A stretch of 64,000 nt of DNA, from positions 1-64,000 of the forward strand of contig JBDHKN010000035.1 of NCBI GenBank assembly GCA_039586365.1. Direction: 5' to 3'. Every line of letters begins with the position of its first letter. Position 1 is the first letter of the stretch. Position numbers and translations under genes: made by a program. Positions 55,915 through 62,438 of this stretch are shown here, piece after piece. Source of the DNA: Gemmatimonadota bacterium (GTDB lineage Bacteria; Gemmatimonadota; Gemmatimonadetes; Gemmatimonadales; GWC2-71-9). The notes beneath the pieces are model-generated. The model saw only the letters and a list, made by a program, of their open reading frames with translations. It was not told the origin of the DNA and did no database searches.

Positions 55915-56043
55915 CGGATCGGCTATCAGCAATCAGCCGCAAGCCGCTGGCTGTCCGTTGTCAGCCCTACCCTATCCGCTTCCCGTACGGGAAGCGTAAA
56001 GTTAGAATGATTGTTGGCCGGTCGATCCTGCGGCCAACAAATT

Positions 56044-56117
56044 GGGTGGTTAGCTCAGTTGGTTAGAGCGCCGGTCTCACATACCGGAGGTCGGCGGTTC
56101 GAATCCGCCACCGCCCA
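56044..56117 (+). tRNA. tRNA-Val(CAC)
   Basis: GGGTGGT/ACCGCCC acceptor stem, AGCTCAGTTGGTTAGAGC D arm, CCGGT-CTCACAT-ACCGG anticodon arm, GGTTCGAATCC T arm; CCA not encoded. Confidence 0.96.
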
Positions 56118-56128
56118 TTGAACAAAGC

Positions 56129-56164
56129 GAAGCCCCGCAATCAATTACGTGGTTGTGGGGCTTC
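56129..56164 (+). terminator. Hairpin after the tRNA
   Basis: GAAGCCCCGCAATCA...TGGTTGTGGGGCTTC. Confidence 0.6.
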
Positions 56165-56214
56165 ATCGACACCGCCAAAACACACCCATCATCGACACCG
56201 CCAAAACACACCCA
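56163..56214. repeat. Perfect 26-bp tandem duplication
   Basis: TCATCGACACCGCCAAAACACACCCA x2. Confidence 0.92.
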
Positions 56215-56416: not shown

Positions 56417-56662
56417 CTACTTGGTGGGATCGTACCTGCGATCGCCCGGGACCTCAGTAATGAATGCGGTTCGATGGCAGGGCATACAATCCACCCGCCA
56501 TATGGGACCCAACGATCCACCGCCCTCAATTGGTCCCCGAACGCTCAACTCACCCTGGCACAGCGGACAAGCCGGGGGCCCGCCTCGAGCGCCGAGGCTT
56601 TCGCGGATCTCCCGGGCCTGCTCCGGGGAGAACGTAACCGGTGTCTCAGAGTACCTGGAGAT
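56417..56662 (-). CDS. Small CPxC/CxxC zinc-ribbon protein with no canonical start (ATC start or pseudogene)
   Basis: Hand translation: ISRYSETPVTFSPEQAREIRESLGARGGPPACPLCQGELSVRGPIEGGGSLGPIWRVDCMPCHRTAFITEVPGDRRYDPTK*. Confidence 0.55.
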   Translation of the reverse strand: MSRYSETPVTFSPEQAREIRESLGARGGPPACPLCQGELSVRGPIEGGGSLGPIWRVDCMPCHRTAFITEVPGDRRYDPTK

Positions 56663-57244
56663 GGCTCACACTCACGCTTGGTCGTTATGAAAACTGCGCT
56701 GCGGTCCGGCTGGCCACAATGGCGGCACCTTGCTTTGGATTGCCGCCAGGTGTTGCGTCAGAGACACGGCTCGTCGTAAGCCAATAATTTCAAACGACAT
56801 GCGGCGCACATTGCACACCCAACACTGACTTGACCCTGCAACAGGACGAGCGGTTGGGGTCTGCCACAATCAATATTGGTGTGCGTCATCTGCACCGTGC
56901 GCCCTGCCCACAGACTCGACGAACGCTCGCAGGGTGGTCCTGCTCAATCACACCCCTTCAGTCAGCAGGAAGGCACTGAGGCGGGCCACCTCGTGGGATC
57001 CGTTTCGCCACGACGCGTTCACACTCAGGTGACCTCGACGCCGAACAAGCGATAGACGAAACATACGCTACGCAAGAGTACCTGGCCCGCTTCATGCAAA
57101 CCGTCCAGTACCATCGAAATCCTGCCCGGATGCCGTCCGGGATGTTGCGTTGAAGAAAGGCCGGTTAAGCCAGTGTCCACCAGAGGCGTGAAGACACCGC
57201 GCTCGCGAGTCGCAGCGCGCGTGCAGCCCAACACCCCCCCCACC

Positions 57245-58447
57245 ATGCCTGAATTCACTACCCAGGGCCTGTCGGGAGACAGAGTCCCCTTGGCATATCG
57301 AATACCTGGCGTCGATCCCAGGTCGTTAGGCCCGTCTGAATCCAGGATAGAGAACGTGGAGTCGGCCCTTCCGAGATTGCTGGCGGTATTCCAACGCTGC
57401 CTCGAAGTGGCCGATGTCGACGGCGTGGTCGACGTTTGCCTCGAAGAACTGCGACTGAATACTCATCAGTTCAGTGCCGCCGCTATGCTGATGGCCCTGT
57501 ACCGCAATCTGCTCAAAGAGGACGACGTAGAAGGATACCTCGTGACGACTGCCCTGTTCGCGCGGCTGCAGGATCCCAAGCTCGCAGAGCTGGCGGCAAG
57601 GGACTTCCTCATCGAGACAGCGCGGCGGTATGCCAACCACACATCGCATCTTTTCCCCGTCCTCCACAAGCACGCGTCGGCCGCTTTGACGATGTGCAAG
57701 TTGGCAAACCGCAGCAGAATCCGGCTCTTTCTGCGGGACGCCCTTGTCTTTTGGCCATCCCTGCTCGCATTGCGACCAAGAGTCTTCGAGATACCGCTGG
57801 ATTTTCTGGTGTTCACCCGCCCTCTCAAGGACAACGGACGCAGCCCATTGGTATTCTCGGACGACGGCTCTGGCGTTCTGAAGCGCAGTGCCCAGCACTG
57901 CGTGCCCCGCACCCTGGTACTCGATGTGGGCCTGTATGGGACTCTGGTCAAAGAGCTCGACGGGAAAGGATTTTTCGCGGGCGACGGCTCCGTGTTGTTC
58001 CTGGGAAGCCGGAATCCGCACATACCGGGATTTCTCAACGAGCTGAGGTTGCGCGAGGCGCCCGCTGAAGTGGTTGTTCAACAGCAAGATGTGGTCAGAT
58101 ACGTAGACACGGTCGAGTGCCTGCTCAAACCGTTCCTGTTACTACCATCCCTCGATGGGAACATGGTCTTCTTGGAGCTGGGTGACGGTATTTCCTTTGT
58201 CTGCTCGGTGGTATTTCTTTGGAGTTTGTATCGCTACTCCCTAAGTGCGGACAAGTTCGATAGTCCTCACTCTGCGGCAGACCTGCTGTCGCCCGCCGCT
58301 GCTCTGGAGAAGCGGTGGCTACTAGGCGAGCCGATTCCCGCTTGGACCAAGGCAAAGGACTTCGTCGCGAATTGGTCCGCGCATGACCTGAAATCTGCCG
58401 CCGAAACTCGGGAATGGCTCGACCGCTGGAAGAGGAACGACCCATAG
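57245..58447 (+). CDS. Hypothetical protein with putative PRPP-dependent phosphoribosyltransferase-like motifs
   Basis: About 400 aa; RLFLRDA, FTR, LVLDVGLYGTL, FLGSRNP motifs; overlaps the trpA-like start; start could be GTG 57173. Confidence 0.6.
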   Translation: MPEFTTQGLSGDRVPLAYRIPGVDPRSLGPSESRIENVESALPRLLAVFQRCLEVADVDGVVDVCLEELRLNTHQFSAAAMLMALYRNLLKEDDVEGYLVTTALFARLQDPKLAELAARDFLIETARRYANHTSHLFPVLHKHASAALTMCKLANRSRIRLFLRDALVFWPSLLALRPRVFEIPLDFLVFTRPLKDNGRSPLVFSDDGSGVLKRSAQHCVPRTLVLDVGLYGTLVKELDGKGFFAGDGSVLFLGSRNPHIPGFLNELRLREAPAEVVVQQQDVVRYVDTVECLLKPFLLLPSLDGNMVFLELGDGISFVCSVVFLWSLYRYSLSADKFDSPHSAADLLSPAAALEKRWLLGEPIPAWTKAKDFVANWSAHDLKSAAETREWLDRWKRNDP

Positions 58448-59208
58448 AACTCAACCACGCCATAGCCGACGCAAACAGGAACGGCCGTCTCGGGCTGGTT
58501 CTCTACACCATTCCGGGCTTTCCGACTGCCCCGGATTATCTGGCCACGCTCGACTTGCTGAACAAGAGCGCCGCAGTGTCGATTGTCGAGATGACCATTC
58601 CCGTCGCCACAGGCTTCTCGGACCATGCCAACGAGACAATTCGGCGTGCCCACATTCAGGCCGTCAAAGAGACGGAGTCGCGGGACATTCCTAGACCCGG
58701 CAAACCGGCTCTATGCGTCCTGTACAAGTCCACGTCCGATACCCGTGGGTTTGAATCTGTTCTGGTCGATACTCTCGGTCAGTTTGAGGGACTCATTCTC
58801 GAGTGGGCAGAAGAAGATGAATCCTCATATGTTGCGATCGCTCGCAAACACGGACTGGAGCTGGTGCAGTGCGTCGGCCCATGGATGAGCCCCGATACTA
58901 TCCAGCGAGTGGTGGAACGAACCGAGGAAGAGCCTTTAATCTATCTTATGTCAGCACCCATGACCGGTGCGCAGCTGTTCTCCAACCAGGAGCTCGACAG
59001 TTGCATTCTAGCGGCGAAGAAGCACAGGCCGAAAGCAAAGGTGGCGGCAGGATTCGGAATCGGTAACGGCCAAGACGTGCGGCGCTTGGCCGAGATAGAC
59101 GCCTTGGACGCGGTCATTATTGGTACAGCTTTTCTCCAAGCCATGGGCGCCGGGCCGGAGGCAACCATGAAGCTGCTCGCAGACGTCGAACCGGCCTTGG
59201 AACGCTAG
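58414..59208 (+). CDS. Divergent tryptophan synthase alpha-chain-like TIM barrel (orphan)
   Basis: LYTIPGFP, IVEMTIP, ETIRRAH, IYLMSAPMTG, AGFGI, DAVIIGTAF follow the TrpA motif order. Confidence 0.85.
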   Translation: MARPLEEERPIELNHAIADANRNGRLGLVLYTIPGFPTAPDYLATLDLLNKSAAVSIVEMTIPVATGFSDHANETIRRAHIQAVKETESRDIPRPGKPALCVLYKSTSDTRGFESVLVDTLGQFEGLILEWAEEDESSYVAIARKHGLELVQCVGPWMSPDTIQRVVERTEEEPLIYLMSAPMTGAQLFSNQELDSCILAAKKHRPKAKVAAGFGIGNGQDVRRLAEIDALDAVIIGTAFLQAMGAGPEATMKLLADVEPALER

Positions 59209-59225
59209 CAACAGCTCACGCGACT

Positions 59226-59927
59226 ATGTGGGACCAATCATCAGGCCGGACTCGGATAAAGCTATGCGAGTTCGAATGCCTCGACCCAGCCTACGAAGCC
59301 AGCCAGATGGGTGTCGACGCGCTCGGTTTTCACATCTTCCAACACCAGGACGCGCTCGAAAAGGCAGCGCGGTTCGCTGAAGTTTTTCGCTACCTTCCTG
59401 CTGCGGTAACCAAGGTCCTGCTGACCGACCTGGAGCTGGACTTCCTAGTTGGAGACGTTCTGCCGCTACTCAGATGTGATGCGATTCAGCTGTACCCAGA
59501 CTGGTCCGCCGAACAAATCGCACGGCTGCGAGATGCATCTCCTTCCGAGCTGAGAATACTCAAGGTCATGTCGGCTAACACTGATGAGAACAAGTTCGGG
59601 AATGACGACGAGTTCCTCCACTACTACGACAAAGTCGTGGATGCTTATCTACTCGATAGCCATCGAATTGGCGGGACGGGTCGCGTAGCCGACTGGCAGC
59701 ATTGCGGGGATATTGTCACCAAGACCTCACTGCCCGTCTTCTTAGCCGGTGGTCTCACCGCAGAGAACGTCGCCGAGGCCATTCAGGTCGTGCGCCCCTA
59801 CGGTGTGGATGTGGAGAATGGAGTAAGTGATCGCATTCCTGACGGACCTCTGGTGAAGAACATGGCGAAGTGCCGCGAGTTCGTCGCCGCGGTACGTAGC
59901 GCAGATCGAGAGTCGGGAAGAGTCTGA
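59226..59927 (+). CDS. Divergent phosphoribosylanthranilate isomerase (TrpF-like)
   Basis: RIKLC, DALGF, DAIQL, YLLDS, GGTG, DW, FLAGGLTAENV, PYGVDV. Confidence 0.88.
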   Translation: MWDQSSGRTRIKLCEFECLDPAYEASQMGVDALGFHIFQHQDALEKAARFAEVFRYLPAAVTKVLLTDLELDFLVGDVLPLLRCDAIQLYPDWSAEQIARLRDASPSELRILKVMSANTDENKFGNDDEFLHYYDKVVDAYLLDSHRIGGTGRVADWQHCGDIVTKTSLPVFLAGGLTAENVAEAIQVVRPYGVDVENGVSDRIPDGPLVKNMAKCREFVAAVRSADRESGRV

Positions 59928-61748: not shown

Positions 61749-62208
61749 CGCTCCCGGATATCGGGTGAGCCGCCACCGCCCAGCCCCACACTGCGAAACC
61801 GAGTCGGTGCCCGTGGCTCACGACGCACGGGCGTGTCTCACATAGCAGGTCTGCCCGCTGCAGGTGGACCGCTGGTCACCATTCCCAGATGGCAAATACC
61901 GCGCCGTTGCCATCCGTCGGAGACTCTAAGGTAAGTTAGCTACTCTGGCTTCGAACGGCCGTTTGTCAGAAGTCGGGTGAGATCCGACCCGGGATCTCTC
62001 CCCGGTCACAGCCCGACCGCCACCCTCGGACCTCGCGTGATTTTGCGCGGACCAGAGGGTAAGACGGGGGTCTCAAACCAGGCTCAAGTTCCCTGCCTCA
62101 TTCTCAAAGACGCATTGCGGTGACCCGTAGCCAGTCCTGTCTGCCGAATTGGCGCCATTAGTTTCCGCGAAAAGGAGCACTCCGGCTCGCCCCGGGTGCG
62201 GCGGAGCT

Positions 62209-62438
62209 GCTGAGGTAGCGTTCCGGGACGTGGAGGAGGCGTCCCCGCTCACGGAGGAAGCGTTCCCGATGACGGAGGAAGCGTTCCCGACCGCTGGGAA
62301 GCGTTCCCGACGGCTGAGGAAGCGTTCCCGATGACCGAGGAAGCTTTCTCGCTGATCCAGAACGCGTGCCGGGCCGTCCAGGAGGCGAGCTGGACAAAGG
62401 AGGAGGCGTTCCCGACCGCCCAGGAAGCTCGGCTTGCG
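62209..62438. repeat. Degenerate 21-bp tandem array, 11 units, one of 20 bp
   Basis: Units like ACGGAGGAAGCGTTCCCGATG; reads xEEAFPx heptads on the + strand. Confidence 0.85.

Follow-up and report, generated by a model that had tools for sequence, protein, structure and literature searches.

An undescribed three-gene cassette of a predicted CriT/gPRT-type phosphoribosyltransferase with TrpA-like and TrpF-like barrels in a Gemmatimonadota bacterium

Three coupled genes form a conserved cassette

The window analyzed here, a stretch of 64,000 nucleotides (nt) from contig JBDHKN010000035.1 of a Gemmatimonadota bacterium, carries three genes on its + strand: ORF1 (57245..58447; P0001, 400 amino acids from the ATG, with an in-frame GTG also present at 57173), ORF2 (58414..59208; P0002, 264 amino acids, PF00290) and ORF3 (59226..59927; P0003, 233 amino acids, PF00697), which encode a predicted phosphoribosyltransferase (PRTase), a TrpA-like barrel and a TrpF-like barrel, respectively. 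We conclude that they constitute a real, conserved and undescribed three-enzyme cassette, the anatomy of which is well supported and the product of which is putative. Recomputation of coordinates and spacing reproduced the arrangement described in a first-pass annotation of this DNA, that is, a 34-nt overlap between ORF1 and ORF2 and a 17-nt gap between ORF2 and ORF3, downstream of a tRNA-Val gene.

When the cassette genes were compared with those of four related loci, the ratio of nonsynonymous to synonymous substitutions (dN/dS) was 0.07–0.20 in all nine pairwise comparisons, which indicates purifying selection and rules out pseudogenes. Together with the conserved gene order, these low values argue against a chance arrangement. 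In pattern scans, an ORF1 relative was found at 13 loci (4 from genomes and 9 from metagenomes; loci are numbered L), three of which end within ORF1 or early in ORF2. All three genes were found in the same order in nine of the ten loci long enough to test; in this set, L007 and L014 represent one contig, and L010 is a near-copy of L011. An indirect proxy, the exact coincidence of longest-contig size with a TrpF-like or ORF1 cluster, was positive for 25 of 55 TrpA-like clusters, with approximately 0.6 expected by chance. By the same proxy, a match was obtained for 7 of 10 mid-distance ORF1 relatives (27–31% identity), including that of Sorangium sp. So ce1014, and the three non-matching relatives sit on contigs of 1.5–3 kb. 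In this Sorangium strain, a cultured carrier by record name, the ORF1 and TrpF-like proteins (XXU47854 and XXU47857) are three accessions apart, with space for one extra gene. Co-conservation of the trio across genomes, on which the first-pass proposal of a mini-pathway depended, was therefore observed.

ORF1 is predicted to be a stand-alone CriT/gPRT-type phosphoribosyltransferase

No Pfam or NCBIfam match was obtained for ORF1, and among 100 family proteins NCBIfam returned none and Pfam two single weak matches. These 100 full-length members were aligned following a profile search that yielded 123 representatives. The motifs of ORF1 comprise R164-D165, R192, D227-x-G-x-Y-G-T233, S255-x-N-P and D288-x-x-E291; in the alignment, D165 is conserved in 100%, D227 and R192 in 97% and R164 in 96% of the sequences, and E291 is invariant (100/100).

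An AlphaFold2 model of ORF1 (mean predicted local distance difference test, pLDDT, 88.6) superimposed best on Bcs3 from Haemophilus influenzae (CriT, 8a0c; Z 13.3, root mean square deviation (rmsd) 3.1, 200 residues aligned) and on a Thermobacillus ribofuranosyltransferase (7shg; Z 11.3, rmsd 4.1, 211 aligned), the next matches being type I PRTases with Z 5.6 or less. In line with this, a profile built from 57 distant ORF1 relatives matched the CriT domain of Bcs3 (E 3.7e-4), and the resulting alignment paired the RD motif, the SR motif and a strand-end acid, with the HB-2 bundle of CriT as an insertion absent from ORF1. In this register, ORF1 R164/D165, R192 and D227 match CriT R679/D680, R708 and E818. 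In the CriT study (PMC10299916), ribose is bound by D680 and E818 and phosphates by R679 and R708, with E874 proposed to act as the base; judging by spacing, ORF1 E291 would correspond to the latter. The close-homologue profile of ORF1 matched nothing among PDB sequences, and Foldseek found no match at E 0.001 or better against PDB and viral models, the top PDB rows being type I PRTases. TPR-like leads from the ESM Atlas scored below 0.9 and were rejected.

Thus, the model predicts ORF1 to be a stand-alone enzyme of the CriT/gPRT type, with a PRTase-like alpha/beta core, the split acidic pair and the phosphate residues. The first-pass annotation had proposed a PRTase other than TrpD, and this held; its placement is now narrower, since ORF1 groups with glycan enzymes that make O-glycosides, a possibility not considered at that stage. 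The characterised gPRT/CriT enzymes are bipartite, carry a HAD phosphatase and all make O-glycosides on glycans (PMC11127046); to date, the type is known solely from the synthesis of capsules and O-antigens. The paired HAD phosphoribose phosphatase is the class feature that ORF1 lacks, with no HAD domain in the protein. Separately, P0183–P0267 make up a sizeable set of distant gPRT-like proteins that stand alone and have no Pfam family.

The TrpF-like barrel retains the catalytic pair in an altered substrate site

ORF3 matches PF00697 (E 6.6e-17); against NCBIfam TrpF equivalogs, its best score of 107.9 bits is far below the cut-off of 215. In TrpF, Cys7 and Asp126 are catalytic, and Arg36, His83 and Ser180 contact the substrate or its phosphate. 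Seventy TrpF-like sequences were aligned with Thermotoga maritima phosphoribosylanthranilate (PRA) isomerase (1lbm/1nsj) as the reference. The counterparts of the catalytic pair, C14 (Cys7) and D144 (Asp126), are present in 69/70 and 70/70 sequences, respectively. None of the three contacts is preserved: there is no Arg at the Arg36 position, the His83 position is occupied by an invariant Tyr (Tyr90), and Ser180 is replaced by Glu (Glu197) in 70/70, which alters the phosphate loop. H36, E121 and N122 are newly invariant.

A midpoint-rooted tree was built from 55 rows, of which 16 were canonical proteins, 9 were of a ‘KICC’ type and 30 came from the 70 cassette-type sequences. The cassette proteins formed their own clade with support of 100/99, in favor of the first-pass reading; they did not group with operonic TrpF and, under this rooting, were sister to the KICC-type orphans. 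The latter, recognizable by KICC...MPSG.G, represent a second orphan TrpF subfamily (L043, L045–L049, L057, L058, L064), which occurs in genomes G028 and G030, where trpC was not found. Three cassette-type TrpF-like proteins (P0130, P0136 and P0143) bear a Rieske [2Fe-2S] domain at their N-terminus, so that some variants may include a redox reaction.

The TrpA-like barrel keeps Glu49 and the phosphate site and has probably lost Asp60

ORF2 matches PF00290 (E 2.6e-15) and scores far below the NCBIfam trpA cut-off. The TrpA-like family aligned with four canonical TrpA proteins with an HHalign probability of 99.3 at approximately 22% identity. The top four folds for the ORF2 model (pLDDT 94.4) were all TrpA (Z 23.2–27.4; best match Z 27.4, rmsd 2.2, 237 aligned), and other folds reached 17.4 or less. 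Among 54 aligned sequences, from which all column counts given here derive, E59 (Glu49) is present in 54/54, and Y177 (Tyr175) and T184-G185 (Thr183-Gly184) are kept. The phosphate site, AGFG plus G237-T238, is also kept, with GFG and G237 invariant in the 54.

Other parts of the protein have been remodelled. TrpA contacts TrpB through a YxN motif, a DLP motif and the Gly181 loop, and in the TrpA-like family these are replaced by other conserved residues; no trpB gene lies beside it in the loci examined. Loop 2 is longer and rebuilt (FSxHAN), and S69, N73, H80, W131 and C153 are new invariant residues. None of the candidate columns for Asp60 is an invariant acid: position 70 is D in 23, E in 17 and another residue in 14 sequences, A72 is found in 52/54 and N73 in 54/54. 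Since helix 2 begins at E74 in the ORF2 model, A72 is favored as the counterpart, and the acid has likely been lost. This is not certain, because the column to which two aligners assign canonical Asp60 is position 70, acidic in 40/54. According to PMC11574760, Asp60, which maize BX1 retains, takes up the N-H proton of indole.

The first-pass statement that substrate and partner motifs are altered in the two barrels holds in view of the lost Arg36 position and the replaced TrpB-contact motifs, whereas its statement that both keep their phosphate-binding elements needs one correction, in that the phosphate loop of the TrpF-like barrel is altered.

Distribution and gene context

Cassette loci are recorded as Gemmatimonadota, Nitrospiraceae (Nitrospirota) and Deltaproteobacteria, the last through one deltaproteobacterial metagenome-assembled genome. 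Protein searches found the TrpF-like gene also in Sorangium, Archangium (by record name, A. violaceum), Myxococcus, Ca. Kentrum, Desulfobulbus, Ectothiorhodospiraceae and Caldilineaceae. The cassette is present in three of eight genomes of the genus, and genome draws returned it in the centre genome only (1/301, 1/401, 1/301) or in none (0/251). Its flanks vary: a tRNA-Val gene and an Acetyltransf_6 GNAT gene in the window, a nonribosomal peptide synthetase in L007, Hsp20/hrcA in L010 and L011, EamA/GNAT in L016, and a scramblase and an MFS transporter in L005. Genome G002 carries a second, decayed copy (L028 1177-2244), consisting of a C-terminal remnant of ORF1 and an intact TrpA-like gene (dN/dS 0.13). 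The rarity, the differing flanks and this decayed copy point to a self-contained, horizontally spread unit, although its composition matches that of the host (G+C at third codon positions, GC3, 0.63–0.69 in the cassette and 0.64–0.75 in host genes). A recent island at the tRNA-Val gene was not supported, as there was no att duplication in the host genome (G000), no integrase and a host-like GC3.

Neither trpC nor trpB was found in or beside any cassette examined, and no HAD phosphatase gene was located inside any of them; in L056 alone, one HAD gene is situated two genes downstream. This bears on an explanation that we consider unlikely, namely, that ORF1 places ribose-5-phosphate on a surface polysaccharide or an (amino)sugar nucleotide, with the barrels rearranging or trimming the unit in place of a phosphatase. 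The nearest structures of ORF1, Bcs3 CriT and the 7SHG ribofuranosyltransferase, fit such glycan decoration, and so does L006, with an ABC transporter, glycosyltransferases and DegT-like and FdtA-like genes, which we take to be a polysaccharide cluster; L012 shares its flanking genes. The GNAT gene downstream of the cassette in the window is likewise compatible, as is a neighbor in L004 that presumably resembles CapK-type ligases, without a Pfam match. However, no glycan genes lie beside the trio in L005, L007, L010/L011 or L016, and ORF1 is devoid both of the HB-2 bundle, which surrounds the CriT active site, and of a HAD partner. Moreover, by established chemistry the Amadori shift requires an N-glycoside, and O-glycosides are incapable of it.

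A role in conflict, raised in the first-pass annotation, gained no support. Here, the target phosphoribosylated and then remodelled by the cassette would be a nucleobase, nucleotide or macromolecule, and the product would be toxic, serve in signalling or protect against phages or competitors. The patchy, mobile distribution would suit this, as would what is, by motif, presumably an integrase-like C-terminal fragment (L008 136-594, - strand) upstream of a 92%-identical cassette, at the place where tRNA-Val would be; a score of 0.91 links a distant ORF1 relative to two unnamed Atlas clusters that have viral members, which is a lead only. Nevertheless, PADLOC 2.0 matched 0 and PHROGs 1 of the 100 ORF1-family proteins, four scans of viral contigs were empty, INPHARED phages yielded no cassette genes apart from one distant ORF1 relative, and no defence genes were recognized beside the loci examined. 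We hold this explanation to be quite improbable. Plasmids also yielded no cassette genes, the best match (35% identity) belonging to a different TrpF subfamily.

As regards the surroundings in the window, tRNA-Val(CAC) (56043..56118, + strand) lies 1.1 kb upstream of the cassette. The interval contains a short, divergently oriented open frame (56417..56665, - strand) that has two CxxC motifs and for which no standard start codon was settled. Both are context rather than conserved parts: the upstream region of L008 differs from the tRNA-Val region of the window, and the small frame, which has a paralogue on contig C21 of G000, adjoins the cassette in no loci other than its two closest relatives (L008 and L009). 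An exact 26-nt tandem duplication is present just past tRNA-Val (56163-56214), and degenerate 21-nt tandem repeats occur at 62197-62428, with similar arrays on contigs C22, C50, C63 and C65. Promoter and terminator counts around the cassette were at chance level, and upstream of it Rfam matched the tRNA alone. One metatranscriptome run gave three contigs of 150–200 nt on the two barrel genes at a depth of approximately 3; this signal was too sparse, had no DNA control and was not used as evidence.

Tryptophan genes of the host

G000 is 86% complete, and its close relatives are recorded as Gemmatimonadota. Its canonical trpA lies on contig C126 in an operon with trpC, where trpD and trpB were recognized from sequence, and a TrpE/PabB-type gene is on C12. 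These genes, which the earlier annotation did not see in the window, lie on other contigs, and given the canonical trpA on C126 we rejected the cassette as a displaced canonical trp operon. The separate canonical operon for which it recommended a check exists as trpD-trpC-trpB-trpA, yet with a gap: canonical trpF was not found in this 86%-complete genome, in which ORF3 was the sole TrpF-family match found, a result that partly contradicts the first-pass interpretation.

This gap could suggest that ORF3 is a replacement trpF, and it belongs to a further explanation, an accessory anthranilate route, in which ORF1 replaces TrpD, the TrpF-like barrel is a real PRA isomerase, the TrpC of the host closes the ring and the TrpA-like barrel frees indole in the manner of maize BX1. 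Consistent with it, canonical trpF was not found in four of six cassette hosts (G000, G002, G004 and G005), the equivalents of Cys7/Asp126 and Glu49 are retained, and BX1 was the top PDB sequence match, by a trivial margin (37 vs 36 bits). Furthermore, variants of TrpA and HisA are able to compensate for a lost trpF (PMC13643763). Nonetheless, the Arg36 position is lost, and Asp60, retained by BX1 (PMC11574760), is not invariant in the TrpA-like family. The inference from the missing trpF is itself weakened, because 12 of 24 other genomes of the family, 7 of them at least 90% complete, have trpC over the cut-off and no TrpF-family match, so that the lineage copes without it. In addition, canonical trpF stands alongside the cassette copy in the other two hosts (G001 and G003), and trpC was not found in G004. 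We therefore view the anthranilate route as rather improbable. G001–G003 also have a canonical trpA besides the cassette.

A trpF-less trp operon is common in the family (G000 C126:62989-70764; genomes G007–G026), and in G016 a short trpF remnant adjoins trpC. In G000 (C126:64157-69965) and L061, an antisense lexA separates trpD from trpC, and trpB and trpA have two genes unrelated to trp, presumably HEAT-like and HD-domain, between them. Databases label the cassette barrels simply as trpA and trpF, so that a tryptophan pathway in a metabolic model can appear complete when it is not.

A proposed pathway on another acceptor

The reading that we prefer, at a probability of roughly 0.45, is that the three genes are a conserved cassette running a short tryptophan-like chemistry, dependent on phosphoribosyl pyrophosphate (PRPP), on another acceptor and without TrpB or TrpC. 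In a first step, ORF1, with its PRTase fold and PRPP-site residues, would place the ribose-5-phosphate of PRPP on a small amine. The TrpF-like barrel, with its Cys/Asp pair, would then turn the N-ribosyl-5-phosphate into a 1-amino-1-deoxyribulose-5-phosphate, from which the TrpA-like barrel, with Glu49 and the phosphate site, would release glyceraldehyde-3-phosphate, leaving C1-C2 of the ribose on the acceptor. On an electron-rich aryl or heteroaryl amine, the ring could close without decarboxylation and hence without TrpC; alternatively, the adduct might be cleaved without ring closure. The absence of trpC fits either course. The product might be a pyrrole-fused small molecule (indole-, azaindole- or deazapurine-like).

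Several features shape this proposal. The loss of Arg36 suggests an amine without an ortho-carboxylate, that is, not anthranilate, and an N-linked adduct is expected because the Amadori catalytic pair is intact. As the transferase has no phosphatase and stands beside two phosphate-binding barrels, its ribose-5-phosphate adduct would seem to be handed on. The cassette carrier G004, with no trpC, trpD, trpB or canonical trpA or trpF over the cut-off, was also counted in favor, although one missing contig could hide the whole trp operon.

Other observations weigh against it. All characterised gPRT/CriT enzymes O-ribosylate glycans (PMC11127046), the aligners that place Asp60 at the largely acidic position 70 would leave that residue in many TrpA-like proteins, and the change of Ser180 to Glu, together with the new invariant His, Glu and Tyr residues, may mean a different chemistry. 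The set can also break up: in L004 the TrpA-like gene is absent and the TrpF-like gene directly follows ORF1, and the decayed copy in L028 has no TrpF-like gene. Finally, TrpF-like clusters (at least 120, at identity of at least 48%) outnumber the 55 TrpA-like ones, and some TrpF-like proteins may have partners other than cassette genes.

A more specific version, doubtful at present, is a TrpC-free, convergent ‘pseudo-tryptophan’ route, in which a glycan-type gPRT turned N-ribosylating, a new TrpF subfamily and a neofunctionalised TrpA would give a pyrrole-fused, azaindole- or deazapurine-like heteroaromatic from an amine and ribose C1-C2, with release of glyceraldehyde-3-phosphate. If this is true, a gPRT would for the first time be found to act outside glycans, and a TrpA-family enzyme to use a substrate that is not indole-glycerol-phosphate. 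A small chance is left to readings besides those discussed here. For the evolution of (beta/alpha)8 barrels, TrpA and TrpF serve as textbook models, and, to our knowledge, natural paralogue families with an intact catalytic core and a rebuilt substrate site are rare test cases for neofunctionalisation. Comprising just three proteins, the system is compact enough to be assayed with PRPP in a single tube.

Comparison with known systems

The first-pass annotation did not recognize the trio as a described system, and we likewise found no description of the gene set in the literature searched, which covered neither supplements nor more than a few subscription journals. By the features tested, the cassette falls outside the trp operon, canonical TrpF, canonical TrpA and the bipartite ribofuranosyltransferases.

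With CriT of H. influenzae Bcs3 (PDB 8A0C) and the gPRT domain (PDB 7SHG), ORF1 shares the fold, the Asp/Glu pair and the RD, SR and phosphate-loop motifs. It differs in being a stand-alone protein of 400 amino acids with 7–11% identity in the structural alignment, in lacking the HB-2 bundle and a fused or adjacent HAD, in its extra SRNPxIxGxxN and PxW motifs, and in being partnered with two TIM barrels mostly outside glycan clusters. With it, the gPRT/CriT class, itself a recent description, reaches beyond glycan enzymes of bipartite build.

The tryptophan pathway (TrpD-TrpF-TrpC-TrpA/TrpB) likewise pairs a PRPP transferase with the homologues of the two barrels, TrpF with its Cys/Asp pair and TrpA with its Glu49. 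In the cassette, however, the transferase differs from TrpD in its type I-like gPRT fold, TrpC, TrpB and TrpE are absent, the barrels have lost Arg36 and an invariant Asp60, and the host has its own trp operon. Maize BX1/IGL is a TrpA paralogue that is also apparently freed from TrpB; it retains Glu49 and Asp60 (PMC11574760), in contrast to the rebuilt loop 2 and the approximately 22% identity to TrpA of the TrpA-like family. A precedent comes from the adechlorin, pentostatin and coformycin clusters for nucleoside antibiotics, in which AdeK/PriA and HisG recruits bring phosphoribosyl transfer and Amadori isomerisation out of amino-acid synthesis into specialised metabolism (PMC13055916). Those clusters, from Actinomycetota, use HisG/HisA-type enzymes on nucleotides, whereas the cassette combines a gPRT with a TrpF-like and a TrpA-like barrel.

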